The notes under the pieces: model-generated
Database searches by the model: none
Told to the model about the DNA's origin: nothing
What the model saw: only the letters and a program-made list of their open reading frames with translations
Program-made: the position numbers and the translations under genes
Source: Tubulanus polymorphus
Taxonomy: Eukaryota > Animalia > Nemertea
DNA length: 64,000 nt
Assembly: GCF_964204645.1 (NCBI RefSeq)
Contig: NC_134029.1
Location: forward strand, 11,744,850-11,808,849
Reading direction: 5' to 3'
Shown: piece by piece, positions 1,681-40,000 of the stretch
Layout of the letters: each line of letters opens with the position of its first letter
Numbering within the stretch: the first letter of the stretch is position 1

Positions 1681-1764
1681 TTTAATACTATATTTTTTAT
1701 TAAAATTGATTTTAGAAGTTCAATGATTTAAATGTTATTCATATATATATGAATAACATTTAAG

Positions 1765-1971
1765 AGTAATAGGGGTAATGGGCTTTCATATCAAAGGTTG
1801 AAAGGTTGAGGTTGATAAATTTTCCAAATGTTAAAATAATAATAATTTCTACTTGAATTAGGAGTGTACGCGACTAATTCAAGTAGAAATTGTTGTTATT
1901 TTAACATTTTGGAAAATTTCTCGGGCTCGACCTTTCGACCTTTGGTATGAAAGCCCATTACCCCTATTACT
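1765..1971. repeat. Terminal fold-back hairpin of Polinton copy A (~97-bp arms, 12-nt loop)
   Basis: AGTAATAGGGGTAATGGGCTTTCA...CTTGAATTAG gagtgtacgcga CTAATTCAAG...TGAAAGCCCATTACCCCTATTACT. Confidence 0.9.
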
Positions 1972-7830: not shown

Positions 7831-10800
7831 CTAATAACTCAAATCAAGAGTGACTCTCCCGTTTATTAGGAAACACACGCAACTAGTGGAATAGGTTTGA
7901 TTTACACACATGTTGCAGGTATCAATTGTTTATCACTGTAGAATTTATAATCCATAAAAGCCAAAATCAACATCAGCCGGAAACCCAGACCAAATCAATT
8001 CATAATTTATTGATTGAATCTACACTACAATAAATGTATTTATTCAAATATTTCAATAAAAACATTAACTTCTTAAATCTATCTGTGAATTCACTCAATC
8101 TATCGACTCAGCAGGTGCTTAAGATGAGTTCTTAATAGGACAGATCCATTTTAAGGATGGTGATAATACAGTATCATGATGTTTGAATGCCAAAATAAAT
8201 GCCTGGTCAAATATATTAATATTTGTGATTGTACGTCCGCGTATGTTCTTTTTCAAAGCTGAATCATATTTGACGTTTACACAGTGGTTTTATATTAGGT
8301 TCGAATCTGTCAATGCATTTTATGATATGTATCGATATTTCAATTTACTACAATTCCCATCATTCTGAATGGCTTTACAGAAAACCCGTCATCGCTGCTT
8401 TGCAGCTATATTCCTTTTAATTATTTCATGTTGAATAATATCAGTTTTTTTTATTTTCTGATGTATTGTAATCCGGTTTAGAATCATTATTTAATTTGAT
8501 ATTCTTTGTTTTAGTTTCTGTTAATTGAATATGTTTTTTAATTTTTTCACCTTCCATTAATTTTGGAGCGGTGATTATTTTTTTATTTATGTCATTTAAT
8601 CCAAATGAATTATTTATTGTTGCAGTTTTAATTAGATTATTGTAACAAATTATATTTCCCATTTTTAATATTAAATCATTAGAAATGATTAATAAATTGG
8701 GACCTATACAATAATTTAATCTTTAATGAGATTTATCTAAATAATTTTGGTACCTGACTATATTTTCTGGAAACTGTTGGTGATCTTGTTTCAACTTGCG
8801 CACCTAAAATACATATCAAATAAGTTCTAATAGATTGATTTATTCTCTATATTCCAGCTTTAGTAAAACCTTCACTATTTTCTAAAATATAATTAATCCA
8901 TCCATTATTATTTTGTTGTTGTATATTATTATAATATTTTGGTAATTCATTCCTATTTAGTGTTCTTATATCTGTATGTGTCATTATTTTTCCAAATTCT
9001 TTAGTATATAATATTCCTAATCCACCCATTGTACCAATTTTTGCTCTAAAATCATTATTTGAATTAATATTAAATTCATTACATATTTTATAAAACTTAG
9101 AAAAATTAACATTATTATTTAGTTCATTAAAATATTTTGAACCTGGTAAAGGGCACTCTAATTCATTTAATATTAATTTTATTTAAAAATATGTATGGTT
9201 TATTTAAATGATCATTCCAACTTATACCACACCCTGTTGTTGCACAATCAAAACAGCAAAATTTAATTGGTTCTGCCAATACTTCATTAGATTTTAATAA
9301 CGATTGTTTTGCCTCATTTAAATTTTTAAAATTAATTACGTAAATATTGAATATATTTTCCACCTTAACATTAAAATTATTAGTTTCAGTAACATAAATA
9401 TCTAAATTAATTAATGAATCTAAAACTTCATTTCTATATGAAATATCTTTAATAAAATCTATTGCAGGAATATTATATCTAATTGATTTATTATATATTG
9501 AAAAGCTTTTGGAAAACTATCTGCCATTTATATAATAAAAAGATTAATAATTAATTAATTCTTTTGATAATTTATCTTGTTCTTCAATTGTAATATTACC
9601 ATTTAAACTTATTATATAATCTAATGTATTCTTTAATTTATTAATTTCTTTTATATTAGATTTTATTTTTTCTTTATTACCTTTTATATTTAATTCTGAA
9701 CTTATTCCGGTTAAAACACTTAATGATAATCCTAACACGCCAATTAAGATGGTTTAAGGTGTTAATGGTGAGAATATTGCTAAAAATATTATTACAGAAC
9801 TTATTGTAACTGAACCACTGATAATAGAATGATATATTATTTTAAATATATTTTTTTTATCTTTAAATCATTTTCAAATTCTAATATTTGTTTTTCAAAA
9901 TATAATTTTAATTTAGTTTTATTTATATCATGAGGAATGATATCATTATTATCAACTTTATCATCCATTTATTTAGAAAAAAATAATTTGTAAATTTATA
10001 TGCCACAAATATAACAATAACAGTTCCACCTAAAATCCAAATTATTTCATAATTTTGTTGTTCTTTACTTGGTGTATAATAATCTGATAATTTAGGTTTG
10101 TATAGATGTAATTTTTCTTTATTTGTTACTGCGTTATATAAACTCATTGCATCATCGACTGATTGAAAATCTCTATGTGTAATTTTCTGATTATATAATT
10201 CTTTATTGATGTAATCCATGTAATTTTTTTTTCTCTATATTCTTCTGCAGCTTTATTATATTTCTCTAATGCTAAGTTATGTCTTCTTTGTTCTGCTAAT
10301 GAACTATTTTTATCAATATGCTTAAATAAATACCCACCACCAGTAAATGCTAAAGTGTTAACAATTGCTGATCCTATAATAGTTATAATTGCAGAAGCCA
10401 TTTATTTAATAAAAGAAATTACGCATTTATATAGGAGGAATATATTTTTGTTTTTCCAAATAATCAATTGTTGAATTAGATAAGGTAACTGCTAATGTTA
10501 ATTTTAAACTGCTAATTTTAAAATATCATTGATATCAAATCTAACAACATTAATACTTCCCATTCTAAATACTTTTTTTAATACCATTGTATAACCAACA
10601 GTTCCCACTGATAATAATGCTCCATTATATAACCCATTTATTATCCACTTCTGTTCTGCCATTTATTAATCAAAAAAATTACCATCTTCAAAATATTTAG
10701 TTATCTTATTAGTTATTATTTCAACATTTATTTTGTTTCATTAGGAAATACAATATTTTTAATATGTGTTATTACATCATTAATATTAAATTTCATTTCT

Positions 10801-10872
10801 TTCTCACGTTTAAAATCAAACCCAAAACATATACTCGGCCCTACTGTTATATTCATTTATATAGTGAAAAAA

Positions 10873-11633
10873 TTATTCTTTACATCTTATAACTAATTCA
10901 TGAATTACAGGAAAGTTATTTAAATCAATTAAGTATCCATTATGATTTCTTACTTCTAACTTAAAATTATTAAATTTTGGAATACAAGGTTTAAAATTAC
11001 ACTCAGCTAAATTATAATTAATTTGAGTTCCAAATTGTTTAACATTTTTTAATGGTAAAATATTTAATATACTAGAATTACAAATTGTACTTTTAGTTGC
11101 TTCAAATGTTTTTGTAGGATCAATTAAATTGCAATAAATATAAAAGTGTGTGAAAGGCATTATATTTGAATTACCGTCTACGTTTCCTGTAACAGTATCT
11201 GGTGCAATTCCTAGCAATTTAGCTAATGGGTTTTTTTTGTCATAAATGCATGTTTAATTTCATCATATACCTTTATTTTAATTTTATTTGTGATATCACT
11301 TTTTATAAATCTAATTAAAAACTTATCATCTCTTCTAATTTTCAACCGTGCTCTTCGATTAATTTCTTGAACTAATGTTTCTAAATTATATAATCCTGGT
11401 TTTAAAATTAAAAACCATTTGTTTATATTTCTAATATGAATTAAAAAAGTATTATCTTCAGTAGTTTCATCCGTTATATAATCAAAAGAATTACATAAAC
11501 CTATATTTACTAATTTTAAATCTACACAATTCTTAAATTCCCTATCTAATTGTACTAGTAAATTATGTGATTTTTGATTATGCAGTTTCCTAGAATCAAC
11601 AAATATTCTATATTCTTTTAATTTATCTTGCAT
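10873..11633 (-). pseudogene. Minor capsid (penton-like) protein, frameshifted
   Basis: ORFs 11223-11633 and 10873-11217 together match 57172-57927. Confidence 0.8.
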
Positions 11634-11643
11634 TTTACATATT

Positions 11644-11997
11644 TTATTCGAAATCTATATCATGGTGTCCTTTTTCATTCTTACCTTTATATATGAAATA
11701 GAAATCACCAGAACATAATTCTTCTAAATCTTCACTAGATAATCTATGAAATCTATCTGGTAAATATGTTCTGAATTTATATTTATTTCTTTTTAACCCT
11801 TCATATTCTAAGTGGATAACTAATTTACCTCCATATGTGTTAGTAATTATTTCAATATTTGTAATTAAATATTTCTTATGAATTGTTAATTCTGTTAACT
11901 TCATAAATTTATAATCTATGGATTTTACATTTGTAGTATCTTTTATTCTATCTAGAAATGATTCGTTGTTCTCACTGTGTACTTGTTTACTCTCCAT
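11644..11997 (-). CDS. 117-aa Polinton protein (intact), putative OB-fold/ssDNA-binding
   Basis: Same length as and highly similar to 57945-58298; function is inference. Confidence 0.7.
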   Translation of the reverse strand: MESKQVHSENNESFLDRIKDTTNVKSIDYKFMKLTELTIHKKYLITNIEIITNTYGGKLVIHLEYEGLKRNKYKFRTYLPDRFHRLSSEDLEELCSGDFYFIYKGKNEKGHHDIDFE

Positions 11998-12535
11998 TTA
12001 TTATACATATTTTTATTAAAATTGATTGACATGCTAGAATTCTTTTCGTAATTTCATTCTCTTTTATTTCTTCTCTTTTGAACTTTAAGTATTCATCTAA
12101 ATTACAACCATATGCAACTGTGTGTATACCATCATCTAAAATATATCTTTTACCATCGAAAGGATTCAAACTTATCTTCTCTATCTCTTCAATAAACATC
12201 TCGTGATCTTCTGATCTTAAACATTTCATCTTATGTTTTCTAACTTCTTCATTGAATATACAAGTGATGTAATCTTTAAAATGAATATTCTTTTCTACTA
12301 CACTTTTTGTTATACCGTTTATCCTTTTAGCTTCATGTTCTTTAGTTCTATAACTATACAATTTAGATCTAATACCTATAAATTCTATCATTTCTTCACC
12401 TCCTAATTCATCCATGAACTTTCCTGGCACCTTTTTATTATCATTGCCAAACAATTCGTGATCTTTTGGATAGTTACTAAAATCAAAATGATGTTTTAAT
12501 GTTTTTGAATCATCTGTTATGCTATTAGTTTTTAT
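11987..12535 (-). pseudogene. polB: Protein-primed PolB C-terminal fragment (copy B)
   Basis: KVPGKFMDELGG...FIGIRSKLYSY...KISLNPFDGKRYIL; resumes at 28655 after the insertion. Confidence 0.9.
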
Positions 12536-12829
12536 TGGTTCGAAGAATGAGAACCTAAGCTATCGTCAAGTTGAAGTCAAGAAGTCACGTGACAGGATCG
12601 GAAGATTATCTTTTCAGATTGAGTGATACGCCTTAATGAAATAGGTCCACATACGTAATTCGCTTGTCTTAAGAATATTATAATTATCATGATAAATATA
12701 TTCAAATACTCTGAATAATATCGTTTTTTTAAATCATGCGTAATGGACACCGATTTAGCGGTTAAAACGAATCATTACATCTACTCGCGCATAAATACAC
12801 CATCAATGCTGAGCCTGCTAAAGCGCCAG

Positions 12830-12914
12830 TAGACTGGTCGCCTGTCCAATTCTGCGCCACCCGCATTCGCAGTCAGAATAGTCTAACAGAAGGTAGATAC
12901 CGGCAACCAGTCTA
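12830..12914. mobile_element. 85-bp mini Academ-like element
   Basis: TAGACTGG...CCAGTCTA termini identical to those of 16427-20754; flanks AAGCGCCAG / TAGCGCCAG. Confidence 0.7.
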
Positions 12915-12923
12915 TAGCGCCAG

Positions 12924-15900
12924 GTGTACGTTCAAAATCCCATAGATCAAAATCCCACAAGTCAAAATCCCATAGTCAATATCCCATTGTTCATAATCCC
13001 ACATATTATGATCAAAATCCCATATATTTTTATTATATACTATGGGGTATCTGATTTTTTACTATACAGTGCCGAATACTGTAGAAATATGTATATGTTA
13101 ATAGAATATAACCTATATGCTGTATATAGGGCCTAATATAGGCTAATGAATGAATACAGATTGGTCTTTGATCTAGAGGATTAGACTAATTATGATATGC
13201 TTTGATCAAAGGTGATTAAGTTGAGATTAATCAGTGTTTAGTTAACCATAGCTATAGACAGGAAAAACCATAAGGAAAGGAAAACTAAAAGAAATGATAA
13301 GATAAGAATTACGTATACTCAATTTTCTACTATAAACTTCTAATAATATTCTATTATTCACAGTTTCATTCAGTACAATTCTGTCTCACATACATTAATC
13401 ATTCTAAACACTTATTCTAAATCATTCTATATACAAACTTGGAAAAAACGATATATTATCACAAATCAGCACATTTTCTTTTCAGTATAGCATCTATTAT
13501 AAACTAATTTCAGACAGACAGGACGGATCTCGAGATTTAACTGGAAGATCTCACGAATTAACACAAGAGGCGCATATTGTGTGAAATGCCTCTCAAAAAC
13601 TGTGGAACACGTTTTTGTCCATTATCAAAGTCCTGACATAGATTTTTTAGCCGTTCTTGCAAGTCCACAAATTTCTTACGAACACGTTTCGCTGGGCGTT
13701 GCCCAACGTTGTCAAGAGCAATCAATGCAGACACAGAAGCATTGTCCATTTGAAATGCATTTATGGTTCTCCAAATTGAGGGATGACGATGTCCCACCAT
13801 GTTAAAATATTTACAATTCCAAGATTCACAGATATTATTGGTCCTTGCACCTCCGGTTAATGTAGCATGATTCACATTCCACAACTCTAACGAATACAAC
13901 GGATTTATCCTCTTCAAGCGCATTATTCCATTAGGCGCACGAACACTTTTATATCCACCATTGACATATGTAGCATCAAAATAACCTAGTAATTCCAATG
14001 CATCATCTGGTGCAACACTACAGATATATGTAAGTCCTTCTTTAACATATGCCACAGGAAGGAATGCTAAACCGAAAATCATTCCAACAAACAGACGGAA
14101 CTCCTCATCCTCTCGATACTGCTTTGCGAGTCCTAGTTGCTGCACCTTTCTCCAAACCGACTGAGTCAAATGGAAGAAACACCCTTTCATCTGAACCTGA
14201 TTATCGAACAATACTCCCACTGCGTTGTGTATTGCTTTCTCAAAATCAGCCATGATGACTTCTGGCTCCGGGAAGATGCTTCTTTGTTCACACTCGTCTA
14301 AGAGAATCTGCAAATACAAAAAATAAAATACTAAGTTAAATCATGAAACTAAATATATGAAGTTCTATTTAATATGAGATGGGCATCTTGTCACTGTCTT
14401 TATGGTCTATCACTGACATTACCACCGTCCATATACCAATTCAATATTGCAAATCATATTCTACACCAGCTGTAAATAAACTTGAAAAGAGAATATATAA
14501 CTAACCTGTAACATTTCCTCGTATGTAGCTTGGTCTTTCTTTTCTAATAAACAATAGGCGACCGTAACTGCTGTTTCCCCAATCGGGACCCGTATCACGT
14601 AAACTTGCTCGAACATTGATGGTGCCATGGCGAAGTTCCCATCCATAAACCATTCTCGAGCATTCCCAAGTCTTTCTATACCATCATCTGCGGCGAATAC
14701 TACAACCCTCCGTCCAGTATGTCCATTGTCTTTCAGGAGAAACCGATTTCCACTGCCTTCTGATGTCTCCATCCATTTACCATCTATCACCAATTCATTC
14801 AAATCTTTTGGTTCTTTTGGTAAGTTTCTCCGTTTCTCGCGTCTTATCATCTGCTTACAGACTGCCGAACTTGGTATCTGGGCGAGAACATCTTCTTCAT
14901 GTATAGACGCTATAACATCAGAGTATATTTGTACTGGATTTGCTGCTACCGAATCTGCCACCTTTCTTTTCATCTCCAGTCTGGTCTTAGTGACAGTTAT
15001 TGCTTTGTCATCTGTGGGATGGTCGTGTGGCACAGTTTCTCTCGGATTTTGCATCTCTGTGTCTGTTACTAATGTTCCCTTGCAGCCACCTGATCGATTC
15101 TTAACACAATTCCATCTTATCTGCTTCGGTGTCGAATATTTCTTGACGTACATGTAACCATTGAGACATATCTTGAATCCACCTTTAGAAGTTTTAACTA
15201 TTTCTGATGCCATCTTAACGTATTGATAGCTGTTAAGAGACTGATATAATTTGCTAAGTTTTGGCCCCTTTTTATAGCAGTATAGCCATGCGTGATAAGT
15301 GTTCAAGTAATTAAAAAATCATAATTGCATCATGCTAATTAATCAATAACTTAATTATTGACACTGAACTGAAATCTGTTCTTTAATTAATTAACTGACC
15401 TAAGTTTGCATTCAGATGTATAGATCAGTATACATAATGTTTATAAGATGCTTTAAAAACTAAATATCATGGATTTGCAATTTGAAGTTACCATTGCTTG
15501 TAAAACAAACCCCAACATGTGTGCACCCTATTCATGTGGAACAAATTTCGGATAAATTGTGGGATTCATATAATAATTAAGGAGATATAATGTGCCTTTC
15601 AAGAAAAAAAAACGACCAACTTTTTCACTATATATAAAATGTGTCCTTTTTCAGAGGCGCCCTTTTCGAGAAATTAAGGACATGATTATCAGATTTTGTG
15701 TTAGATGTGCCCCTGAATAGCAATCTTGTCATACAAAATTGAGTGTTTAACATGCATTTTAACATGAGGTGACATTCAGTCAGTAATACTAACAACTTAA
15801 CAATTAGTCATCCTTTAATCTAATAATTTGTTTTGTTTGAAATTGGTCAAAGCAGTAACAGCCACTCAATTAATTATTATTAATTATCACTAACTAATTA

Positions 15901-16402
15901 ATTATTACACATGAAAGTCATGTTTGAAGTTGTCATGTTCAGCATGTGAACTGAAGTCAATATCAATAGTGTAATTTCCTTTTGTGAAATTATATAATAC
16001 ATAAATTAACAACTATCCTTTAATCTAATACATAAATCATGATCCTTTGATCTAATATCCTTTTGTTTTAAATAGATCAGAGCAGTAAATGATACAATAG
16101 ATTTAAAAACGGCCAATCAAAGGACAGCATCTGAACTGAAGTCAATTCCCCCTAATCCCTTACCCTTGGTTTTCTGAACAATACCTACCTAACTTAACTT
16201 AAATTTCAGCTGTTAGTGCTTCAACATATGTTTGTGTCTAAGATATCATATCATACATATGATGATAAGATGGGAAATACAATTTGGTAATACTAATGTA
16301 TGGGATTTTGATCTTTATCTGTGGGATTTTGAATTATGGGATTTTGATTATGGGTTTTTGACATGTGGGATTTTGTAACTGTGGGATTATGACAGGGATT
16401 CA
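12924..16402 (-). mobile_element. Mutator-like (MULE) DNA transposon
   Basis: 9-bp TSD TAGCGCCAG (12915-12923, 16403-16411); inverted subterminal arrays of AAAATCCCA / TGGGATTTT; internal transposase. Confidence 0.9.
13558..15213 (-). CDS. FLYWCH zinc finger + MULE DDE transposase, two exons (15213-14506, 14307-13558), ~485 aa, apparently intact
   Basis: FLYWCH (GYMY...WNC...C...HDH); WFMDGNF, IMADFE, GCFFH and RTNNICESWN motifs; GT..AG phase-0 intron 14505-14308. Confidence 0.88.
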
Positions 16403-17077
16403 TAGCGCCAGTAGTACGTACAGCCATAGACTGGTCGCCTGTCCAATTCTGTGCCACCTGCTTTCGCAGTCAGAATAGGACAGGTTTAACCCGTCCGCCA
16501 TCTTCCGCGGAATATACGGATCCAATCAGATTTCAGTATTTCATCAAATGAACAATGTAACATGGCCTCCTCCAGAGTGTCTCGATTTACGTTCCATGGA
16601 CCGCTTTAAAGTCGATTTTTACACCAATGAAGAAAGAAACTCGACTAAAACTATCAGGTTACGCTTCTGCGGGCACCTGTACTACGCTAGGCTTTGAAAA
16701 TACCGGTATACAATTCAGGATGTCTCCCTTACAGCGCTGTCAAAATCTACCCTGCTTGAAGGAACCGTCGTCAATCGACAACAACGACAACAACGAACTT
16801 GAGATGGAAAAACCAATCTCTACTGTCACTGACATTCTGAACTGAACCAGCCATGCAGCAGAGGCCACGACACCGGCAATTTGTTTGTTCACTTGAGATG
16901 ATTAATTTATTACTCTGAACGTGACACTGGACATTAGCAGTCAATTTCATTGTGGTGAAAATATTATACGACAGGTAACTTCACTTCAGTCTTTTAAAAC
17001 TTGTGAACAGTAAATAAATACTTATTTACAAATATTCTGTTGATTGTCTATTGTAGGTCATTGACTGTGTTCTGATG

Positions 17078-17842
17078 AAGATTTTCTGAGATACAACTCA
17101 GGATTTCTTAAGAATTAGAAGTTATACGTATTGAATTGAGCTCAACATGCACAGAATGAATTGTTGTCGTATCATGGTCAGTTTGAAAAACGGATGAACG
17201 GATTTAGGCCTACTGTCTGGTCAAGACTTGGTCTTTGTGATTCGAGTTAAGTTAGAGATATCAGTATCATTCTGTTGTCACACAATTTGCAATGTCACAA
17301 AATACGTATGTCACCGTCTTGTCAGGCTGTCTGTATATTGAAGATTTTTTCTGAGATAGTACTCAGGATTTCTTAAGAATTAGAAGTTATACGTATTAAA
17401 TTGAGCTCAACATGCACAGAAAGAATTGTTGTTGTATCATGGTCAGTTTGAAAAACGGATGAAACATGAATTGAAGAGTCAATCCAGGTTTAATTGTTAG
17501 TATATCTATATTGATTTAATTTCAGAATGTATCGTCAATCACGAATCAAAGAGATTAAACGAATCCAGCACTAATCGTCATGAAATAAGATTCCAAATAA
17601 CAAGTGGCGAAACTCCTTGATTCTGATGCAGTGATGAGGTTTAAAGAGCTGGAATTTATGAATAACTACACGAGCGAGCATGCAATTGGAATTGAGATTG
17701 GATTTAGGCCTACTGTCTGGTCAAGACTTGGTCTTTGTGATTCGAGTTAAGTTAGAGATATCAGTATCATTCTGTTGTCACACAATTTGCAATGTCACAA
17801 AATACGTATGTCACCGTCTTGTCAGGCTGTCTGTATATTGAA
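17078..17842. repeat. Internal tandem duplication with a deletion in the first copy
   Basis: 17078-17197 ~ 17341-17463; 17200-17342 ~ 17701-17842. Confidence 0.8.
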
Positions 17843-19110
17843 TAAGATTTTGTACTAGAAGTGGACAATAAATATAGAATAGCAGTAAAAAGAGTTTGTC
17901 GTGATGGAATTGTATACTCAATTTCTAGCAAAAATCATGTTTGGTCCATGAGGAGAGGAAAATATTGCGAATATCCAGTTGATCTGAATTAGTGGTCTCT
18001 CCCAAGTCTGTCCCAACTCACTGTCTGTATCGAGAATATAAGTAGAGATGCTGCGGTGGAGCCAAATATCTGATCTCACAAAACACTGACAAGGAGTTCA
18101 AACTATTGTAAACTTTATTCAGACTTAAGTCATTTTCACATCATCATAAACACAACAATTCACTGAATACATTCCACATAATGATAAAGAAAGCATGTCC
18201 CCCTTCGGCCAAGTTCCTTCAGAATGACTATCACAGCTGAGCCCTTTTTCTTACCTACAAAAAGACTAAGTATCAATTGAGTTGTCTGAATTCCGAGTAA
18301 ATATCAGCGGATTAATTCGATACTTACAGCAATTAATGCATTTTCTTCGGTCTTTAAATTTCCTTACGTTTGCTGATTACAATTATGATTCATAGATTAT
18401 CAGCTGATTTACTGTAATCAGGGAAGTGTGATGAGATGGAATACGGACGCTTTTAATTGCCGGATGTAGGCTATTCAATTCAGCCCGTACATCAAAGGTT
18501 ACCGCAACAGCAGTAAGCTACGCTTATCGAGTGTGTGTTACCAGCTGAACACCAGTCAACATCAACTTTGATTTGGTCGCAGAACAACCCGCAATAGTTT
18601 TAGCCCGATAAATGTTCTGCGATCGATACTACGCATGCGCACTGCAGTTCATTGAACAACGTGGAAGTGGCTGTGTATACACATATTTTTCTTTAGAAAA
18701 TCGGTTGAAATTCAACAATTTCTCGTAAAATTTGTCCAAAAAGGTATGTATTTTTATTCTTCTATATCTCCGAAACCCGGTATCGGAACATTAAGTATTT
18801 ATATTGTGATTAAAGTCTGTTTTTATGTGTTAAACATATGTTTTTGCCAGTTCGTTCCGATTCCGGGTTTAGCGTTATTTGGGCCTTGAAGATGTCAAAT
18901 ATTTCGGCCCAGACTCGCGCAGCTTTCGTTTCTGACGTCATGTTGCTATGTTACGACACAAACATATACACGAAGTATGATCTTTAAAATGTGTATTTAC
19001 TACATAATAATGTTACTTAATAACGTTTACATTAGGCCTACAAGTTATTGTCCCCCATATAAACCAAGTTGCCTAAATAGCATCAGCAATCTCATTTAAT
19101 TAACCTTTTC

Positions 19111-19392
19111 TTGTTTTTAGTCATGGATCTTTGTCGATTGTGTGGAAAAAATGCGAAACCTCCAGATCGTCGTCCTATCGATAAAAATAATTTCAAAAGC
19201 CATGTGAAGGAGTTGTTCAACATTGATTTTGATGATGATACTGAACCGTACCCGATATACATCTGTAATATGTGTCGTGTCAAATTACAAAAATGGCGTA
19301 AGAACAAAAACGTTAAAAAAACTGTCCCTGTGACTATCAAATTAAAACAATGGACATGTAAACCACTGGTTAATTCCAAGTCTGGACGGTGA
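19111..19392 (+). pseudogene. Zinc-finger fragment resembling RAG1/Chapaev transposase N-terminal domain
   Basis: LCRLCG...VKELFNIDFDDDTEPYPIYICNMC pattern. Confidence 0.5.
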
Positions 19393-20064
19393 CGTATTTG
19401 TAGTCAAAATTTTATCGATCGATTTTCCATAATGTACTGCTGCCATTCCATTTGAACTGAATTTAAATACTCGATGGTTAATCACTTCAGTCATAGCCTT
19501 TTCCAAATATATAGTGTTCCTGCGAAAATAATAATAATGATTATTATTTTAACATGTACTTATCTGGATTTTTTATATTATGTTTATATATTATTTTCTG
19601 TATTCGTTTATTATTTTATAACCTAAAAGGATTGTATTGATTATAAAAATAAATGTAAAAAATACCTGTATGTGTGTTTTCTCGTGTTCAGATCGCAGTC
19701 TCTGGTCAGCTGAGCCTGAGAAGTACCTATATGAAAAATAAAAAGGAAAGAATAAAGTGCCTGCAATTAGGTGGAAACTATTCCGATATTTCATCGATTC
19801 AAAAGGAATAACACTCACTAGAATCGGCCGAATTAGTTGATCCTGATCCAGAGGATTCCCGTAATATTTCCGTATCGATCTGAACCAATTCGTCACTATC
19901 AAAGAATAGTTCGTCAAAATCGTCATCATTTATAATTTCGTTGACAACCGTTGCCATTTTAATACAGCGGAAAGAACCGATATCACGATTGATAAAACAC
20001 TATATCCGTCTGAAGCGATGTAGAGAGAATCGCACAATGATAACGAAAAAGTCCAAAAATGTTA

Positions 20065-20125
20065 GTAGTTTATTCGACGTTTCGTCTATGTCCTAATAGT
20101 CATCTTCAGAAATAATGAATACTAC
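20065..20125 (-). ncRNA. Minimal hammerhead-ribozyme-like motif (Penelope-type remnant)
   Basis: Minus strand UUAUUU-CUGAAGA-U-GACUAU..AUAGAC-GAAAC-GUC-GAAUAA; stem I and imperfect stem II can pair. Confidence 0.55.
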
Positions 20126-21954
20126 AGAAATTATGAGATATATATACAATCCAGAGACTAAGAGACTAATTCAAGTAATCAGAGATGATACAAACTAAAG
20201 GAAAATTAACGTAGAAACAGTTACACGCTAAAACAGATTAAAGAGAAGCAGTTAAGAGACAAACTAGGGGGCACTTAAATTTAAGACAATTGTGAATACA
20301 AGTTGATCGACTGAAATTGATGAGGGGAAATCAGGTGTTGAGTTTAACCAGTTTACAGAGGAATTTTTAAATAAGTTTATTATGGGATGAAAAACCGATA
20401 TTCGGAAACAACTGAATTATTACGGGAGATTCCCGATCTCGTTGGTTATCGCTTATCGGCGCGTTACGTAACAAAGCGCTCGCCGACGAACCGTTATCGG
20501 CTTTAGGGCAATTACAACGCACATTCGACAAGAGCTGCACAATAGCGTCCGTATTCCATCTCATCACACTTCCCTGCTGTAATCAATCATTGCAGTGCGA
20601 TTTTGATATTACTCCTAGTTTCGCTTATTCGATAAGACGCCATTTTAACCCGGAAGTAACTCGATACTGACATGTTTGACATGCATCGAAAATGTAAAAT
20701 GGAGGATGGGATTAACCGGTCTCTAACTGAAGGTAGAGACCGGCAACCAGTCTAGTACAGCCATACACACGAGGCGCATTTGTTTGAAACCGGTTTGCAC
20801 AAACCGTTTCGGTTAGTAGGAAAATCGCATTTGTTCATAACGGTTTGCAAACCGGTTTTCATAAACCGTCGTCTTTGTTCACGCGTAAACCTAAACGGTT
20901 TGCGTAAACCGACCAAACCGTTCGCCGAGCGGTTTGCAAGACCAAACCGACTTTTCCAACATGGCGGTCCCCTTTGATTTGGTAATCGCTGATAAGAAAA
21001 TATCCACCGTAGCTGACTCTATGGACGCTTATAAATGGATCAGAGACAGTAACATTAAATAGTTTTATGCACGGAATATATATAATTCGTAAAATTATTT
21101 CTAATAGCGATTGTATGTGCTGTAATTCGCTCCATTGCATGCAATTCTATCTAAATTCAAAGTTAATTTATTGATAATGCTCATTAAACATCCTTATTTC
21201 AGATTCACCTGGTCATTGAACAAATTAAATCTGATTATGACTTCGCTGCATTACCTCCTGATGAAACAATTCACATAAGGGTTCCTGACGATATTTTGCC
21301 TGGTAATGGTAAGTGTTAAGTATGTTTAGAGTTGTTTAAGATGTAGTAAGCCTATCTATGATGTGAATAAAATAGTACCCAGTCAGTAGACTACTTTACT
21401 CCCAGTCCTGGCACTAATGCTATTGATTGCCATATGAATACCGGTATCGACATATGTTTAATCGTCATGAAAATGAGAAGTTTGAAATATTTTGTATAAA
21501 TCATTGCGTTTTATGTTACGTAGGACATATGTGATGAAAATAGATATGAATGCTCGACATAGTCATAGATCCTTTGTTAATTTGTTTCCTTTTTTTCCAG
21601 TTCACAAGAGACCAATTCAAACAGAAAATAATGTACGTGTATCTAATACAGATGAAATTACTGGTAACAGGCAAACAGTAAACAGTAAAACAACTGTGAA
21701 AAGTATTGATAGTGGTAAGTCTTTAATATATCAAATAGGCTACAGTCAGTAACCTTTCTTTTACTAAGTCATGTTATTGATCTTTGAATATTATAGCTAT
21801 ATTTTATGATTTTTGTTATAGGGGACATCTTTCATTGATCATCCGTGCTTTATCAATATTTTTAGCCCATTATTAGTCTTGCTAAGAAAAACAGAATATG
21901 CCTAAATTTGTTAGTTTTTTCTGAACAATATCATATTAAATTTTTTATTTCCAG

Positions 21955-22573
21955 ACAAACAACAAATGCCTGATAATGCTGTTAAGCTAATCATTCACCT
22001 TCGTACAGAAATGGATGAGGACTTTAGTAAAATGGGGAAGAAGAAGCGTCCACTTTGGGAAAAAATTGCTGAAAAATTGGAAGAAGAAAAGAAGAAGGTT
22101 ATATATATATATATACTTGGGAGCAGATTAAAGCTAAATGGAACAATTTGGTTCATATGTACAAACAAACCTGTGATAAAAACAATCAAACTGGGAACTC
22201 CCCTGCAACGTGTAAATTTTTCGATGAGTTGGACAATATCCTAGGCTCCAAGCCCAACGCCCGTCCTGATTTCACTGTCTCTGCATTTGAAAATCTCAAC
22301 AATAATGATATTGAAGAGAGTGACATTAGTACTAGTGATGATCCTTCAGATTTATTCCCCCAGAACCCCCCAAAGCGCAAAAGGCCAAATAAACGGACGC
22401 AGGAGTTACATCATATTTTGGCGGATTATGAAAAAGTAAGGCGAGAAGAACACCAAGAAATTATGACTGAGATGAAAAAGGAACATGAACAGTTTTTGAA
22501 ACTAGAAAATCATAGAACTGAAATCGAGAAGGAAAAAGTCCAGGTGCTCAAAGAATTATTTAAAAAGTTGTAG
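21955..22573 (+). pseudogene. Harbinger Myb/SANT-like (trihelix) DNA-binding protein, last exon, frameshifted at a (TA)n tract
   Basis: LWEKIAEKL...TWEQIKAKWNNLVHMYK...CKFFDELDNILG plus C-terminal coiled coil; probable upstream exons near 21200-21715. Confidence 0.8.
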
Positions 22574-23063
22574 GATAAACAGTCGAGTTAGGGCTAAAGA
22601 AAATGATACCTTGTTTCTCCTAATCAGCCGGGTCATTTTTTATATTGCAATAAAATTTGTAATCAGTTTTCATTTTTATAACTGCCGGGTCCTATCATGG
22701 TTTAATAATAGTATTGTACAGGGTAGATAGGCAGCTGGCTGGGTCAATTTTTTTAGCTCAGCAAAGAGGAGAAACAATGTATCAAATTCTTTAGCCTAGG
22801 ATTGGTGTATTTAGTTTTGAAGTGATTTCTTTTACATTTTTCTACGAGTGTTCAGTAATTGGTCAAATCTTACCTAGAAGCTCAAGTGATATAGTATCTA
22901 GTAGATTTTACTAATGCATACATGATATTGTACAATGAAGATCTCAGGAAATTAACAAGTTTTGTTGTTCTGTTAATCACTGTCAAGATGGCGGTATAAG
23001 AGAGCATTTAAGACATTTGGGGCTCACATTTATAATTTATAAGTTTTTGTTTATAATAAACGA

Positions 23064-25305
23064 TTTTATTAGGCCAGCCGTAGGCTGAGCCTATTACTAT
23101 ACAAATGGAGCGAATTTAAATGACATGGTTTCCACACAAAAGGCTCTTTTGCTTGCCAAGTGATGGCATATTCGAACAAATCACGTATTTAAGCGTAATC
23201 CATTCTCGGAATCGTAGCGAGCAGAATTTTGAAATAGGGTCTCATAAAAATGTTTTCTGCATTTTTCACGAAAGTTAAATCGGGAAAATTTCAATTTTTA
23301 TCAGCCAATCAGGAAGTTGTGTCTTCCCTGTGATTGGTTTATCTGAAAATATCAGCAGCTGTTCACGTGAATTATCGCGATTTCATTACTGGCGCTTTTG
23401 CGCATGACGTCATGTATCAACAAGCGACAATACTTCCGCGTTCGCTACGTTTTCGCTGATTGGCCCATTTACTGGGAAATTCCACAGAAGCCTAATGTGG
23501 TTTGTTACAAGCGCTGTGATTGGCCCGACCCGATTCTGGCATGGCTTTAGCTTAGTGGGTTCGAATCCCTTGACGGGTGAAGATGATGGATCCTATCAAT
23601 ATCTATTGAAACAAATAAGTTTCCCGGTTGGGCAGCCGCGGATATCTACCGGAAGTGTTCCGGTTCGATATTTCGGGGTTTCTTTGAATTTTGGAGTGAT
23701 ATTGAAATCCGGTAAATACCAGAGGTAGATTGTGAAAACCCATTGCATGATATTTGTATTACTTAATCAACGAAAAGCGTCGGGGCCGCGCCAGGAGTTT
23801 TCGTGATTCAAGTAGCGCAATAGCCTACTTCTTCGTGTTCGTCCACCTCAATTTTCACTCCGCCGATCTCTGACACGGCTCTGTCCCCGTCGGCGCTGTG
23901 ATTGCACTTTCGTACCACCAAACTTTTTTATTTCTATATCAGGGAGGTCTGGAGAATAAAAAAAGTCAAAATTTGGATATCACATAGGCCTGATTTCATC
24001 GAATAAGTCGACCATGGTCGTTACGTTTCCGTACTTATTACCACCTAAAACCGTCTGAACAATTTTGTCACAACCAACATTTCGTTTACAGAAATCAGGT
24101 GTTCACGTGAATCCGCGGTATCGTCTACTGTTTTACTTCCGGGTTTTATTTTAAGATTTAAAATTGTATTTCAAGATCGATTTCTATGAAATCTTTAGTT
24201 GATTTGGTGTTAGGGAGGAATTTTTATTTGCTCTACAGAAAATTCATCCTTGACAATTGCGCAAGGTTCGCGAAAAAAAGGTTTTACCAAATCGGGTGTA
24301 TGACCTTGATATGCTAATTAGCCATGTGCCCGAATTGAAAATTCAATCAAATTTTATTCTGCCAAAAAATGTTAAATACAATTCGCTTTCCGAGAGTTAA
24401 TGGTATGCTGCATGGAACAAAGTTGTTTTGAGATGGGTCTTGAAGCTACTGAGGTCGAGAGATAACCATCTAGATAGTTCGTGAGAGTTCCAAAGTTTTG
24501 AAGACGCTTCAAGGTAATGTCTTGATATTTGTTTTATACGTGTATCTACCCTAGACACATCTTCAGGCCAAAAACTGGCCCTGTCAGATTCAAGATGGCC
24601 GACTGGCAGCCATTGTTGTTCGCCAAAATCAGCACTTTTTACACATTTTCGAAGTTTTCGAGGGAAATTTTGAAGACACTTTTATCAATAACCTTGATCA
24701 TTCGTATATATTTGTATCCCCCGAGGACCCATCGGCATGAGAAAAATTGAGTCGATCGGACTCAAGATGGCCGTACTGTGACCTTTTTTGTTCCCAAAAA
24801 TGTCAATTTTGGCCTGAATTCTGAGTACTGTAGCTTTCTAATGGTGCGCCATGTTTCATTGCAATTTGTAATGGGTATTCTTTGGAAAGGGATCTTTTAT
24901 ATCCGAGAGGGTATTTTTGACCAGGCAATTATGACGCACTTGGCAGCCATCTTGGGGTCATCAGTACTCATTCGTAGGTGGAAAAAAAGTTTTTCCACAT
25001 AATTGATACTTAAGCATATTTTGCTACTATAATCAATTGGAAAGTTGTAGCTCATGACATGTTCTATGATCGAGGTGAGTTTCAAGCTCATTGGTTTTTT
25101 TTATGGCCACCAGGGGGCGTTGAACTATACAATAACTTAGTATTTCTATATTACATTCGTTCCTGCTGTCTGTGTTAACACACGATTTTACTATGTAAAT
25201 GATATTGAACAGGGAGTGTATATTGATAAATATAACCCACAGATTACATCATTTATAAAAAGCAAATCTGACAGGCTGGCCATTGTGCCCCTTGGGGCTC
25301 TTGTT
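23064..25305 (+). mobile_element. Helentron-associated non-autonomous element (HINE) inserted in the Harbinger
   Basis: Subterminal IR GGCCAGCC/GGCTGGCC, 3' hairpin GCCCCTTGGGGC then TCTTGTTT; near-identical copy at 63113-64000. Confidence 0.75.
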
Positions 25306-25404
25306 TAAGTTTTATATCAGATGTGTTTATTATTTCCTTCAACATTTTGTGTTTTTCTGTAAGGAGAGCCTCATGTGTTGGATGTAGACATAAAATTGAA
25401 ATAT

Positions 25405-25612
25405 TGTGGTTTATCTTAACATTGTACGGACCTTGGTTTCCCAAGATTAACCCTATTGGATTGTTCATTTAACCTCACGACGGGACCACAGCCTTTGAAG
25501 AGTCACCCGCACACTGTAAGCAGCCCCAGCAGGACTCGAACCCACTTGTCACTCGCCACTTATAGTACACCAGCATTACGCCTTATTCAAGTCAGCTACC
25601 AAGGCCGCGCTC
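25405..25612 (-). mobile_element. tRNA-derived SINE
   Basis: Minus strand A-box-like TAGCTGACTTGAATA and B-box GGTTCGAGTCC followed by a non-tRNA body. Confidence 0.55.
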
Positions 25613-25895
25613 TTGTTCACCAATTTATCATTCCTCTTGTCCTCAAGTCAAATCAAATAGGAATCTCTGGTTGAAAATAGAATGCATCATAGAATAAAAA
25701 CTAACCATTAAATTTTATTTCTAAGAGATTTATTGAACCAATTTCTGGGACAAATCTAATAACAAAACCACATGTTGAGTGACTGGTTCTATGGAAATGT
25801 CTGCATCAATATTTAAGTACAAATTTACAAATTGAATCAAAACAAGAGATAAAACTTTAATTTCCATTGGGAAAATCTTCATTTTTAGTATGTCA

Positions 25896-27196
25896 TTACA
25901 AACCAGTATTAAGTAGTACAGATATAATATCTCTTTTCTGTCGCCCATTTACAGATTCTCCTTCCATTTCACATAACACTGGTACATTATTCTCCTGCAT
26001 GTTATGCAAGCCCTCTTGCATATAATCCTCAAATTCTCCGTCAGTTAACATGCAAATGTTGTGAAGTACAAAACAAATACTAATGAAGTTCATCATCCGT
26101 TCCATGTCGCTCATATCTATATATTTCAAACGTCGGAATCGGCCTTTTGAAATACCAAAAGTATGTTCAACCCTCATGCGTGTTGAGCTATGTTTGAAAT
26201 TGAAATTTTTCTGTATTCTGGTTAGATTGCCAGTATCTTTGAATGGGGTAATAAGGACACTGCCCAGAGAATACGCAGAATCTCCAAGTAAATGACTGTT
26301 AAGAGGAAATATACTTTCTTGGTTATCAGTACTTTCGATTGCATGCCATAAGGGAGAATTTCGAAAAACACGAGAATCATGGGTTGATCCAGGCCAACCA
26401 GTATAAACGTCAATAAATTGATAGTCACTATCACAGATAGCACATACGTTTATGGAATAAAACTTTTTTCGATTGATGTATGCTTCTGGACTCTTAACTG
26501 GTGCCTTTATTGGTATGTGCGTGCCGTCCACAGCGCCTAAAACTTTCGGGAAACCTTGAAGTCATTCGAAACCCGCAAATATTTCTTTCGTACGTTCCAA
26601 TGATGGCCACTTTATAACCTTTTGGCATGACATGTCTAACCACACAGGCAGATACCTTACCTGAAAAAAAAACAAAATACAACAAATGATTATTACATTA
26701 CAATTATAAATTTTCCATCAAAACTAGTTTCAAACGACTCACCGATAATTTAATGCACGGATGCTTCACACACGCCAAACATGTCAGCAATATGCATGAG
26801 TGTTGCCTGTGTTCCTGCATAATATAAGTAAACAAGTAGTTTTTCCACGGGTTTATTTCGTGTACCACTTTCGATGATGTACGGTCCAACATACTCCAAA
26901 ACCCTATCAAATGTTTCACGAGTCATTCTAAAACGTAGCCTAAAGTCCTCTGGCAGATATCTACTTACTGTAACGTCACAGTAATTTGTAATCCGATTTA
27001 CAGTTCTCCTCTTTTTGTGTTTAACACTCTCAAAAACATTTATCAGAACACAAGCTGGGGTCGATGACGAACGTTTTAGAAGCGTATTTTGATAACGGTT
27101 TGAACGAATACTGCTATTGGTCACAGAACCAACAGAGGAAGACAATTCAGCTATCGACAAAACGCAGATGATTTTCTTCTCGCTATCATCGACCAT
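25896..27196 (-). pseudogene. Harbinger (HARBI1-like) DDE transposase, intron-containing, with stop/frameshift
   Basis: FRLRFRMTRETF, AVDGTHIPI, YINRKKFYSIN, GWPGSTHDSRVF, LLGDSAY, FNFKHSSTRMRVEHTFG..KGRFR, LHN motifs. Confidence 0.92.
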
Positions 27197-27599
27197 TTTG
27201 AATACCCCACACAGTAAACCGTCGCATTTGTTCACACTACGGCAAACCGGTTTGTGACGTAATAAACCGAAATAAACCAGTTTGTGCAAACCGCTTTCAA
27301 ACAAATGCGCCTACGGTATCTTCACCCTTCAAGTGATTCGAACCCACAACGCTAAAGCTGTTCGCCGAACGCTAGAGCTGTTCGCTGGTGGAAGCGAGTT
27401 CGGGAGTGATACCGGACCCCTGGCAAGCGAGGATGTACACACGTGTCTGTTTAAAGAACATACCTTTAACCGCCCTTTGGTTTTTTTCTTTTCGGGTGAA
27501 ATATAGAATCCAGTCCGAGTCTGAGCTGATACCGTATCGAAATTACTTTAAGGTTCGAGCGCCAAAATGTACAGACAAAAGTACATTATTTCAGGCCAA

Positions 27600-27817
27600 G
27601 ACACTGAGGGATAGCGGGCCTTTTTTCGCGCGAGAAAACAAAACATTTTGGTTTTCTCGCGCGAGAATTCAAAACTTTTTGAATTCTCGCGCGAGAAACC
27701 CAAACTTTTTGAATTCTCGCGCGAGAAAACAAAAAAAGAGCCACTGTGAAAATTTTTTTGTCGTTGCTCTAGCCGTACAGAAAATTTATTTAGTATTGCC
27801 CGAATCAGCCACCATAC
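27600..27817. repeat. Short MITE-like remnant with four ~30-bp units containing palindrome TTCTCGCGCGAGAA
   Basis: Units near 27623, 27653, 27684 and 27714; end CAGCCCACCATAC resembles the end of the satellite block at ~5752-5764. Confidence 0.55.
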
Positions 27818-28654
27818 AAAACAGATTTAGACAGTTGATCATTTCATACCTTGTACATGTTTTAAAATACAATGTATCTTTACTTGAAGTGAATGAAACT
27901 TATAAGTGGTTATGATACATCAGCAGCAGAAAAGCACTAGGCTAGTGCATGATGCTGTTTTTTTTTCTTATAAATAACATGTTCCATTCTTTAAATTGTT
28001 AAATCCGTTTCTTTAAATTGTTTAATCGATAACGAATGCACTGAGTGAGAACCTGACTGGTGTCAGTGAAAGTGGTATATCACTCGGTCACATGCGAGCT
28101 CCTTAGTACACGCAGTATTACGGAGCGCAACGCTAGGGACTGGGTGAAGTCCTGAAATGAATCATTCGGGTTGCATCTAAAATACTAAAATCAAAATCGG
28201 AACGAAAAACACCACAGGGCGGTTAGAGGTATGTTCTTTAGACAGACCCTATACACACGTTGATGCCAACACCGGCTTCCACTTCAAAAGTTAAGAACAA
28301 AATATCAGAAATATTTGTGATCCGATTTACACCAAATAAACCTTTAAAGAAAGGTGTTTAGCATCGGATATAGTGCCGAAAATTCTAGATTGATACACTA
28401 CATAGTTTTTCAAGTGCGCATTTTTAGTGAAAACCAATTATGTTGATTGACAGCAGGCTCAGCTCCGCGCCTCATTTTATCGATGACATTAGGTGTAAAC
28501 AATAGCATTACCACGTGCGCAATGCAAACGGAAAACAGAATTTCTTTAAACAAACTTCTCTAATGGAATATCAATTTCTTTTCATAATTTGCCTTTTTTA
28601 TGTAATTTATAATTTATACATCAGACTTTGCTTCTTCGAACCTCAGTCCTCTTG

Positions 28655-31247
28655 TCTTTAATATGTAACTGTCGGTATCAAAATATAAGATTTATATATG
28701 CTTTTCTCCAAAATGAGGTTGTAATACGTTATAGTAAAATTCATACATTAATAATTTTGATATTTCTAAAACATAAATTGGTTTATTAAATTTCATACTT
28801 GTTCTCCTCATTTTAACTGCAGCTAAATTTTCATCAAATATTCTGTTACCTATGAACTTAGGATATGATTGTAAATGTCTTATCCTTTTACCATTACTAA
28901 CTAGCTCAATATCATTTCTATTTCTAATATTTTCACAAGTCTTACCATAGAATGCATTATTCATTAACTTGAAGATATCTTTCTCGAAATCAGTTTTAAC
29001 TTTAGTTCTCTGTTGGTATTAAAATGTATATATTTTTCTAACCATTTAGATTGACTGAATGAAATATATCTATGTACTTTTTTAGAATCATTCCTTGATT
29101 CAAATAGAATTTTAATATCCGATAATGTACTACATAATTATATTTATCTTCCTGAGTTACAATTTACTTTTCTGTATGAATATGATTTTCAGGTTTAATT
29201 CTTTTTGATAATTTGATAATTCTTCATGTGTTACAGTTTTATGTTCGGGACAGTATGCTAGATTTCTAGATTTAAATTTAATGTTTTCAGGGTATTCCAA
29301 GTCTACAACAAAAAAGTAACCAGTATCTGAATCATCTGCAATATCTAGAATTCTTTTCTTCCAATCAAATTTATCATTATTTTCATGTTGTAAAACTTCA
29401 GTTATTTCAAATACCCCATAAGGTTGAGGTTCCATCATTGCCCAACCATATAGATTATTTGCATCTATATATAATAACTTATATCCAGGGTTATCATTTA
29501 CATTGAAATATCTATCGCCTAATACACCTGAAACTCCTCCTCTTATAGATTTTTCAAATGATAATAATTGATCTATATTCGTTAATAAATCCATTTTTAT
29601 ATCTGTAAATTTTAAACCACAGTCCCAAGTTTTAAACCTGGACTAGAATAACAATGACATGGATCAATATTGAAATATTTTAGATTTACATCTCTAAACC
29701 TTTCAAATATATCAGTTAATAATAATACATCTGACTTTAGGTATAAATCTACTAATTGTCCATGATTTATTATATTGAAATGATTCCAAATATCCAATGT
29801 TCTATTATGAACTTCATCTTTAACATATTCATTTTTTAATTCATCATAGAATTGTTCGTTTAATAATTCAGTTATATTAAAATCATTATGATTTTTATAA
29901 CATGAATATGAAATTGCTCCTTTATATCTCATTAATTGAAAATCATCATTATTTGGATAGTGTTGTTTTAATATTTCTAATTCATCATCAACTAATGATT
30001 TTTATAAATTATCTAACGAACTACTTAAAAATCTATATGAATCTAAAAATCCTAGACACCCAAATTGGAAAGATATATAATTCTCAGATGTTTTAGCTAA
30101 CATTCTAAATTTATAAGTTGGTATTTTAGCAACACCTTTTGATCTATTTGAATTTAATCTTTCTATTTCATTATTGATTTCTTCTATTTTATGACATTAG
30201 TTGCTTGATGAATAAATGAGCATCATACCCTGATAAATTATGAAATATAACTGGAACAAAGTTTATTTTTTTTAGCTTGTAAGTTACAATTCTCATGTGC
30301 TGCACCTCTAAGCTTTCCATTCAAATGATCATGGTCTTTTTTATCTTTAAAATTAAATAGTTTTTCGCAATAATAACATTTATCTGATAAATCAAATTCT
30401 TCTTTATCTTCTTCTGTCATTATAATTTCTATATTTGTATTTAATAGTGTACTAAATTTGATTTAATATTCAATTAATAAGTCACAAAAATGATTGATAA
30501 CATTTTCATTTCTATAATTATAATATTCACTTTCAATTAGTTCTGGATAATCAGATTTAATATATGACCCGAAAGCTGCAGCTGATTGATGAATCTTTTT
30601 GATAGTATTTGTTATTAGAGGATCTGAATAATCAATTACATCATTTTCATTAGAATTCAATTTCTTTCTTTTATGATATATTTCTTTTCTATCTTGATCA
30701 GTTAATTCTTTGTTTAATGATTCAAAATCTCCATATATTACAAATGGTACTTTATTCTTGTAAACATTGAATTCTAATACTTTATCCTTTTCATTTGGTA
30801 AAATCATTTTACAATAATCATGGTTATCACATAATTGTTTATGATTTAATACTGTTTATGATTTAATGTACTTTCATTGCTGAATCTATGTAAACATTTT
30901 CTACGTAGATATTTTTTATTGTGATTATTTTCTGTTCTAAAAAATAAATCGATTTGTTTTATCCACATATAATGATTCTCAAAATATAGTATATCTATAA
31001 CATCATTTGAATCATAATCTTTTGATAGGTATAAAGGCTCTAATGTAAAATGTTTTATATTGTTACCTTTTGTTTTAGGTAATTTGATTAAATCGAATAC
31101 ATTTATTTTTAGATTATTATCTCTTTCTATTTTTGGGATATTTTTAATTCTAACTGGATAATTATCTATCTTATAATTATTTTCAAATTGTTTATAATTT
31201 GTTAATCTATAAGTATGTTGATTATAATCTTCAACTGCATGTAAACC
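28655..31247 (-). pseudogene. polB: Protein-primed PolB, central and N-terminal fragments (copy B), heavily frameshifted
   Basis: MNNAFYGKT, YIDANNLYG, LYLKSDVLLL, DHDHLNGK.RGAAHENCN, VIYGDFES; colinear with ~58837-61410. Confidence 0.92.
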
Positions 31248-37769: not shown

Positions 37770-37783
37770 CGTGAGTCTCTATA

Positions 37784-38188: not shown

Positions 38189-38278
38189 CTTAAAATATTC
38201 ATGTAAATGAATAACATTTAAATTGACAGATTATTCAATATAAAAGTGTAAGCTCTTATAGAATAGATATATAAATAG

Positions 38279-39994: not shown

Positions 39995-40000
39995 CTTATT

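Follow-up and report, generated by a model that had tools for sequence, protein, structure and literature searches.

Introduction

In the 64,000-nucleotide stretch of DNA analysed here (the window), the terminal hairpins of a mobile element carry arm mismatches that mostly place T opposite G on one strand. The question raised by this locus is whether that strand folds as single-stranded DNA or RNA under selection, as an initial annotation had proposed, or whether the pattern could arise without structural selection. The window is eukaryotic repeat-rich DNA with several copies of one Polinton/Maverick family, and its host is likely an animal, judging by the types of element present. Polinton replication has never been directly shown, and a single-stranded intermediate is part of a model; a single-stranded 'racket' intermediate has been proposed for Polintons, as retold in a section of PMC4196379.

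Copies and gene content of the element

We identified the following Polinton/Maverick features: a protein-primed family B polymerase (pPolB), a retroviral-type integrase, a packaging ATPase, and terminal inverted repeats (TIRs) with AG...CT ends. Copy A is the right end of an element, with its terminus at 1971 and the + strand as its outward strand. Copy B (8416..31216, - strand) persists as decayed internal fragments (8416-12535 and 28652-31216) without termini, and copy C runs from 37784 to 62701, with all the genes listed for it on the minus strand. No copy retains both ends within the window.

Copy C encodes an A32-type packaging ATPase (38279..38890, - strand; PF04665, E 1.6e-11), the stop of which lies about 90 bases from the left inner arm of the terminal palindrome, and a fragmented RVE integrase with a C-terminal chromodomain (38883..40000, - strand; PF00665, E 1.3e-07; PF00385, E 1.1e-05). 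The PF00665 match on one integrase piece (32.2 bits) falls just below the curated cut-off of 32.6, and the integrase with its chromodomain is intact in two relatives, L002 and L005. A probable major capsid protein of the double jelly-roll type, split into two pieces (51335..52584, - strand), is 75% identical to a protein of L002. Atlas neighbours of the L002 capsid candidate score 0.97-0.99, some of them with capsid families on 10-24% of members; a PDB sequence search with the capsid candidate gave no matches, and a single-sequence model (pLDDT 30.5) was unusable. Among the 24 ORF pieces scanned against Pfam, neither an adenovirus-type maturation protease family nor an HUH/Rep nicking-enzyme family was found, an EndoVII/HNH domain being present instead of the latter; an NCBIfam scan of the ORFs gave nothing useful, and several ORFs are without an assignment. 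A BEL/Pao LTR retrotransposon nested in copy C (44102..51275, + strand; 589-bp LTRs, 5-bp target duplication) is not part of the Polinton.

The copy C polymerase lies in four pieces (58328..62287, - strand; PF03175, E 1.3e-13; PF02945, E 2.8e-05), with pieces 61% and 73% identical to an intact 1,365-aa relative (P0121). Its layout comprises C2H2 fingers, a terminal-protein-like domain, an EndoVII/HNH insert and the polymerase core. The terminal-protein-like domain (61596..61913, - strand) has a predicted little-finger/PAD fold, with an invariant Ser-Gly in the loop preceding the last strand, where the linking residue is expected. For a model built from 8 sequences (pLDDT 78.9), 10 of the best 12 structural matches were Y-family little-finger/PAD domains (Z 5.8-7.2), the best with Z 7.2, rmsd 2.9 and 91 aligned; Foldseek gave no matches at E<=0.001, and all Atlas matches of this piece scored below 0.9, a representative search leading to 9 relatives. 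These matches lend moderate support, the most that a Z under 8 can give, to the reading of the polymerase N-terminus as a terminal-protein domain. A little-finger/PAD signature is reported for Polinton terminal proteins in part of 10.1101/2024.03.18.585575.

The EndoVII/HNH domain occupies aa 330-379 of the polymerase piece 60306-61595, and is also found in P0121 and P0125. A Cys and a His motif in the same piece may resemble the vOTU protease domain expected after the terminal protein. VSR is a T·G-nicking family. Other Polinton polymerases with HNH or VSR inserts, the VSR in mollusc Polintons, are described in sections of 10.1101/2023.08.22.554363.

We noted further repeats and ORFs in and around the copies. 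The region upstream of the polymerase is duplicated upstream of a 215-aa ORF at 42124-42771 (42763-42941 vs 62300-62466, 81%), and the interior of copy A (1-115 and 1510-1754) is a mosaic of these two regions. Another Polinton fragment, at 3560-4590 and in the opposite orientation, matches 40373-41371 at 77% and is followed by a 31-bp satellite array (about 4546-5705). Other nested TIR elements lie at 5794-6941, 12932-16392, 23060-28247 and 33222-35028, and ORFs 13558-15318 and 25896-27310 may be Mutator- and PIF/Harbinger-like transposases. A 493-aa ORF at 52834-54315 has a hydrophobic C-terminal part and no family match, and presumably resembles the GasderminX protein of Beta adintoviruses. 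That protein is described in part of PMC8502044.

Terminal palindromes

We identified five occurrences of a 19-base end motif in the window, with none expected: two in copy A (1765 and 1971), two at the left end of copy C (37784 and 38188), and one at its truncated right end (62515, which corrects by one base the inner-arm start of 62516 given in the initial annotation). The TIR begins with a palindrome that is flush with the terminus to the base, of 207 nt in copy A and 405 nt in copy C, and palindromes of the family span about 90-400 bases. The termini are AGT...ACT and are confirmed by reads; the AGT end motif is known in Polintons, according to part of PMC8097293.

The copy A hairpin (1765-1971, + strand) consists of a 97-bp stem and a 12-nt loop. 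Its inner arm (1765..1861) begins AGT and holds the T of all seven T·G pairs of this hairpin, its apical loop (1862..1873) has GA at each end, as do some short stem types, and its outer arm (1874..1971) ends in ACT at the element terminus. The left terminal palindrome of copy C (37784..38188), left unused in the initial annotation, is intact and has the minus strand as its folding strand, with an outer arm at 37784-37896, an inner arm at 38077-38188 and an apical 16-bp stem at 37954-38009. Inside the palindrome the TIR continues (38189..38250) and matches 62453-62514. The right end of copy C (62453..62701, + strand) comprises this inner TIR and the inner arm, and breaks off at 62701, just inside the apical stem; right and left ends match in 244 of 250 columns (97.6% over the 250 bp of TIR seen).

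The hairpins of copies A and C have their first 47 nt in common (94%) and diverge beyond. They had been described as independent, but the common 47 nt and a GGT(T/C)GA site present in both make this independence partial.

A small perfect 16-bp palindrome lies one base inside the copy A inner arm (1728..1763, + strand; z -7.5); as a conserved feature it was rejected, being reduced to 7 bp in copy C (z -0.8). The apical loop of copy C (37970-37993, minus strand) is GC-rich, and purine-rich on the folding strand, with two GCGGAGC motifs and a GAA triloop-like motif. In DNA such loop motifs form sheared G·A mini-hairpins (reported in part of PMC5449611); the GNA mini-hairpin motif GCGGAGC is not enriched within the window (8 vs 5.0 expected). 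A perfect 74-bp palindrome is found at 62762-62835.

Mismatches in the hairpin arms

On the + strand of copy A, which is the 3'-terminal one, we counted 88 Watson-Crick pairs, 7 T·G, 1 G·G, 1 T·C and 1 bulge. This recount reproduces the earlier statement that 7 of 9 arm substitutions place T opposite G on the outward strand. For copy C, the right inner arm compared with the outer arm at 37784 has seven substitutions (5 T·G, 1 G·T and 1 C·A), so that six of seven, rather than all of six as first stated, are compatible with G·T pairing; the C·A lies at 62607 and is confined to the right end. The left hairpin of copy C has the same six wobble sites, one T·C (left arm only) and three gapped columns in its arms; when it was aligned automatically, 5 wobble-type differences and 3 transversions were counted, a result that varies with gap placement.

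Copies A and C together hold 13 wobble pairs vs one C·A (p=0.0018), or 11:1 when two shared sites are merged (p=0.006). The T is in the inner arm and the G in the outer arm in 12 of the 13 wobble pairs, including all seven of copy A (p=0.002 given available sites). This one-way arrangement, the fixed polarity across copies and the sites common to A and C had been overlooked. Three of the seven T·G sites of copy A are in a CpG context.

At the wobble sites of copy C, left and right inner arms agree in six of six cases, and the presence of the same T states at both ends indicates that the pattern predates insertion. The six differences between the TIRs of copy C are unbiased, with 2 of G·T type, 2 of A·C type, 1 transversion and 1 gap. 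Relative to the element, polarity is the same in A and C, and on the + strand that of the C left hairpin is opposite to that of A, which rules out a regional strand bias of the host. As a control, eight other inverted repeats in the window, read on the + strand, gave 8 G·T-type vs 1 A·C-type mismatches, distributed as 4:0, 3:0, 1:0 and 0:1, with none in the remaining four. Short runs of one mismatch class occur in other inverted repeats too, which calls for caution.

Predicted folding of each strand

Folded as DNA, copy A reaches -86.4 kcal/mol on the outward strand vs -74.8 on the other (z -23.9 and -19.7, respectively, against 200 shuffles), and copy C -119.4 vs -111.1. With RNA parameters the strand gap of copy A is wider (-143.9 vs -113.7). 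A comparison of folding energies had been suggested as a check of strand specificity; the outward strand folds better in both copies, and the other strand still folds strongly.

Variation in sequencing reads

We investigated the termini in reads of run X5, which carries the same species label and of which about 12% was sampled. Behind terminus 1971 there are 1,271 loose ends (agreement 0.34), and before terminus 37783/4 there are 1,981+288 (agreement 0.33-0.37). The outer arm is covered at a depth of about 3,740 and the flank at 18-27, a ratio that points to no fewer than about 140 termini; the number would be higher if the flank, a retroelement, is multi-copy. The earlier view that the arm differences are no assembly artefact is borne out by ends in raw reads, at a depth of ~3,700 and with heterogeneous flanks.

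For hairpin A, 5,465 reads were placed, of which 239 fit two places, and they are unphased. The variants listed are 40 of 77 (share at least ~14%), 34 of them at paired positions. Among these, both arms are variable in 12 of the 20 pairs with variation, vs 2.6 by chance (0/100,000 draws); three of the both-arm cases are transversion pairs (1789/1947, 1832/1903 and 1852/1883), and T·G sites interchange with C:G and T:A (1840/1895 and 1843/1892). Six of the variants listed are transitions that, with no second change, would produce A·C or C·A, and for five of them a transition is also listed at the partner site; the sixth, at 1933, is without a partner change, at a place where inner-arm reads are clipped. 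Transversions without a matching partner change, again among the variants listed, are found at 1783, 1784, 1841, 1916 and 1947 (to T). The T·G pair 1799/1937 has no variant among those listed (cut-off ~14%), at depths of ~1,340 and 2,700. The covariation between arms that had been put forward as a check may be reflected in the both-arm changes, qualified by the unphased reads and by the five transversions lacking a partner. Both-arm counts can be inflated if palindrome arms are misplaced or if diverged subfamilies are assigned to the wrong arm, and changes in both arms can also result when one arm is copied onto the other.

We additionally identified short or alternative stems, from joints of 1810 to 1925 (50 reads), 1802 to 1925 (46 reads) and 1806 to 1927 (26 reads, with its own inner stem). 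These joints indicate stems of ~90-95 nt, along with stems that carry a distal stem in addition. Several stem lengths, together with the both-arm changes, agree with the earlier claim that structure rather than sequence is conserved. Flipped ends make up ~1%, an outer-type arm being joined to internal sequence in 14 reads vs 1,271 flank junctions, on which count an AAV-type equal flip/flop mixture was rejected. At the left end of copy C, four opposite-strand joints of 7-11 reads are found among the best 15 of 29 joints.

Search for relatives

A 24-base terminal pattern had no matches in viral_contigs or genome_contigs, and in viral_contigs no relatives were retrieved with the ATPase or the polymerase as query. 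A metagenome scan (52/64 parts) returned 19 loci, none with a terminus or a match to the A/C hairpins. The ATPase is internal in the long close relatives L001, L002 and L005, which have a permuted gene order. AT-rich palindromes behind the ATPase in the five closest relatives were set aside, being without a consistent strand bias. In L001, a kinase-like ORF with a P-loop lies on the opposite strand at 10340-10981; it may be a deoxynucleoside kinase.

Comparison with known systems

The element resembles the Polintons/Mavericks (Polintoviricetes; adintoviruses) in its pPolB with a terminal-protein-like domain, RVE integrase, A32 ATPase, TIRs and AGT...ACT ends, and probably in its candidate double jelly-roll capsid protein. 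Unlike those described, its TIR opens with a palindrome of ~90-400 bases that bears a fixed strand-specific T·G pattern. The words 'hairpin' and 'palindrom' do not occur in the main texts of PMC8097293 and 10.1101/2023.08.22.554363, nor does 'hairpin' in those of PMC8502044 and 10.1101/2024.03.18.585575. Our literature search found no report of terminal hairpins in a pPolB Polinton or of strand-specific wobble; the founding papers of 2006-2007, Repbase entries and supplements were outside its scope and may bear on this. In the available part of PMC11296320, hairpins are mentioned for poxvirus ends only.

In position, the palindromes resemble those of virophages/PLVs of Halocafeteria seosinensis, which lie in the TIRs by the element end; sections of 10.64898/2026.07.28.741278 propose hairpin priming, not tested there, describe these palindromes preferentially in elements with non-pPolB replication genes, and picture a subtype with 52-nt palindromes. 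In contrast to those protist elements, the present one keeps a pPolB with a terminal-protein-like domain, and strand asymmetry and covariation are not given for them in those sections.

Parvovirus/AAV termini replicate by a rolling hairpin, with inversion of the flip/flop type in AAV. There too, a fold-back at the 3' terminus runs up to the very end of the DNA and could act as a primer, but the present element has no HUH/Rep match in its 24 ORF pieces, only ~1% flipped reads, and an RVE integrase. Streptomyces telomeres, as described in part of PMC5449611, likewise belong to a terminal-protein replicon, and their 3'-terminal strand is palindromic and folds when single-stranded; they have several short conserved palindromes, an internal origin and Tap/Tpg, whereas the present element has one long variable stem and a pPolB. 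The panhandle of adenovirus/PRD1 is similar in that a displaced strand regains a duplex end through inverted repeats, although direct evidence for such structures is lacking according to part of PMC11886824. A panhandle joins two genome ends, whereas the present hairpin forms within a single end, with the 3' end left recessed.

Discussion

We propose that folding of the 3'-terminal strand as single-stranded DNA probably matters for this element, a prediction drawn from the mismatch classes, their polarity and the reads. It would imply a single-stranded stage, in which the strand has been displaced or excised. By prediction, mismatches can be tolerated only on the 3'-terminal strand, where selection for pairing would purge C·A and A·C and would let C:G, T·G and T:A interchange. 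The outer arm would also be constrained in sequence as the true end, and change would gather in the inner arm as C-to-T; confinement of C-to-T to the inner arm would make the T·G pairs one-way. The earlier proposal of one strand folding under selection, as single-stranded DNA or RNA, can thus be narrowed to the 3'-terminal strand, and since the palindrome reaches the very last base of the DNA end, DNA is a better candidate than RNA; deamination with arm copying may nevertheless mimic the pattern without selection.

Such mimicry would require C-to-T and A-to-G deamination on the 3'-terminal strand together with arm-to-arm or end-to-end copying, the palindrome being a by-product of fold-back synthesis, and we consider this rather unlikely. 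Deamination of one strand gives only G·T-class pairs, so that the missing C·A fits either reading, varied stem lengths could stem from snap-back copying, and the G/(G+A) ratio at synonymous sites is greater for genes of the left end than for those of the right (p=0.02). However, deamination of the 3'-ward strand predicts that coding-strand C be lowest in left-end genes, and synonymous sites are without such C depletion (left vs right p=0.47), while the G excess is not a gradient, the middle being lowest at two-fold sites. Many G(inner)·T(outer) pairs would also be expected, against 12 of 13 observed as T·G, and changes in the reads are strand-symmetric, though unpolarised, both in hairpin A (C>T 7, G>A 7, A>G 7, T>C 8) and at the left end of copy C (C>T 25, G>A 24, A>G 34, T>C 32). 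The retention of T·G across stem types is hard to reconcile with frequent homogenisation. During strand displacement it is the 5' part of a strand that stays exposed for the longest time, which would be the opposite end to the one affected. The deamination reading, too, implies a single-stranded stage. Selection might instead act on RNA, on a hairpin that tolerates G·U and forms in read-through transcripts, with TIR homogenisation spreading the pattern to the other end; this appears improbable. At the left end the folding strand is the sense strand, all genes being minus and the ATPase stop lying about 90 bases before the inner arm, and the two strands differ more in energy under RNA parameters; but an RNA has no need to pair flush to the last base of the DNA, which an extrachromosomal transcript would have to reach, and no Rfam match was found in 37700-38400. 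Finally, CpG decay in the host after insertion, or an assembly artefact, is very improbable. The CpG context of three T·G sites of copy A would suit decay, but this would give CpA as often as TpG, the T states are common to both ends of copy C, and A and the left hairpin of C are on opposite genomic strands with the same element-relative polarity; the presence of the ends in raw reads speaks against an artefact.

Among the readings considered, we favour priming of second-strand synthesis as the function of the folded 3'-terminal strand, a proposal that we make tentatively and rate, as a whole, a little below even. The strand would fold back, and its paired 3' end would prime the second strand across the element. 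Work on phi29 found that protein-primed origins lose much of their activity when 5' overhangs are present, and its authors remark that a recessed 3' end serves well as an ordinary primer (in part of PMC4150772); a recessed paired 3' end is the geometry of the present hairpin, which would favour ordinary extension over protein priming. Against self-priming, the presence of a terminal-protein domain means that the element does not need a hairpin primer, and the evidence for a strand-polarised hairpin comes from one species. The same single-stranded hairpin might instead serve as a local duplex origin, or as a protective cap, for terminal-protein-primed initiation, in place of a long-range panhandle of the adenovirus/PRD1 type, a reading that we regard as rather unlikely. 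Such an origin or cap would account for the choice of strand, the constrained outer arm and the fixed polarity without a resolution step, and the terminal-protein-like domain (best Z 7.2) is in keeping with it. Precedents are the duplex origin of phi29, stronger than the single-stranded one (in part of PMC4150772), and Streptomyces telomeres, where folded 3' overhangs guide end patching (in part of PMC5449611). Yet all the rest of the genome would hang from the folded end as a 5' overhang, which in phi29 makes a markedly weaker origin and leaves it open to ordinary extension, and the Z of the domain, under 8, is moderate support only.

Self-priming from the 3' hairpin raises the matter of polarity, which simple terminal resolution would flip in each round; as it is fixed, an extra polarity-keeping cut would be needed, which is speculative. 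Self-priming, followed by terminal-protein-primed synthesis from the open end, could yield an inverted dimer, and this might be cut at the outer-arm boundary by the integrase or by the EndoVII-like domain of the polymerase. The GGT(C/T)GA site, with C in the outer and T in the inner arm, might tell the cutter which of the look-alike ends is real, and so block a polarity flip. A hybrid replication of this kind, with a self-priming 3' hairpin, terminal-protein priming at another step, a polarity-keeping cut by an element-encoded nuclease, and T·G wobble as the mark, is not known from any element and is as a whole doubtful.

What is new here is a strand-polarised, inherited terminal hairpin in a known kind of element, the Polinton. 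Strand-specific wobble and both-arm changes would be the sequence footprint of a single-stranded intermediate, and name its strand and end. The finding extends terminal hairpins from protist elements without pPolB to a terminal-protein element, in which a hairpin was deemed unnecessary. If the hybrid replication is true, look-alike ends would pair as single-stranded DNA yet differ as double-stranded DNA, and nucleases embedded in Polinton polymerases (EndoVII/HNH, VSR) would be end-processing enzymes and not passengers.
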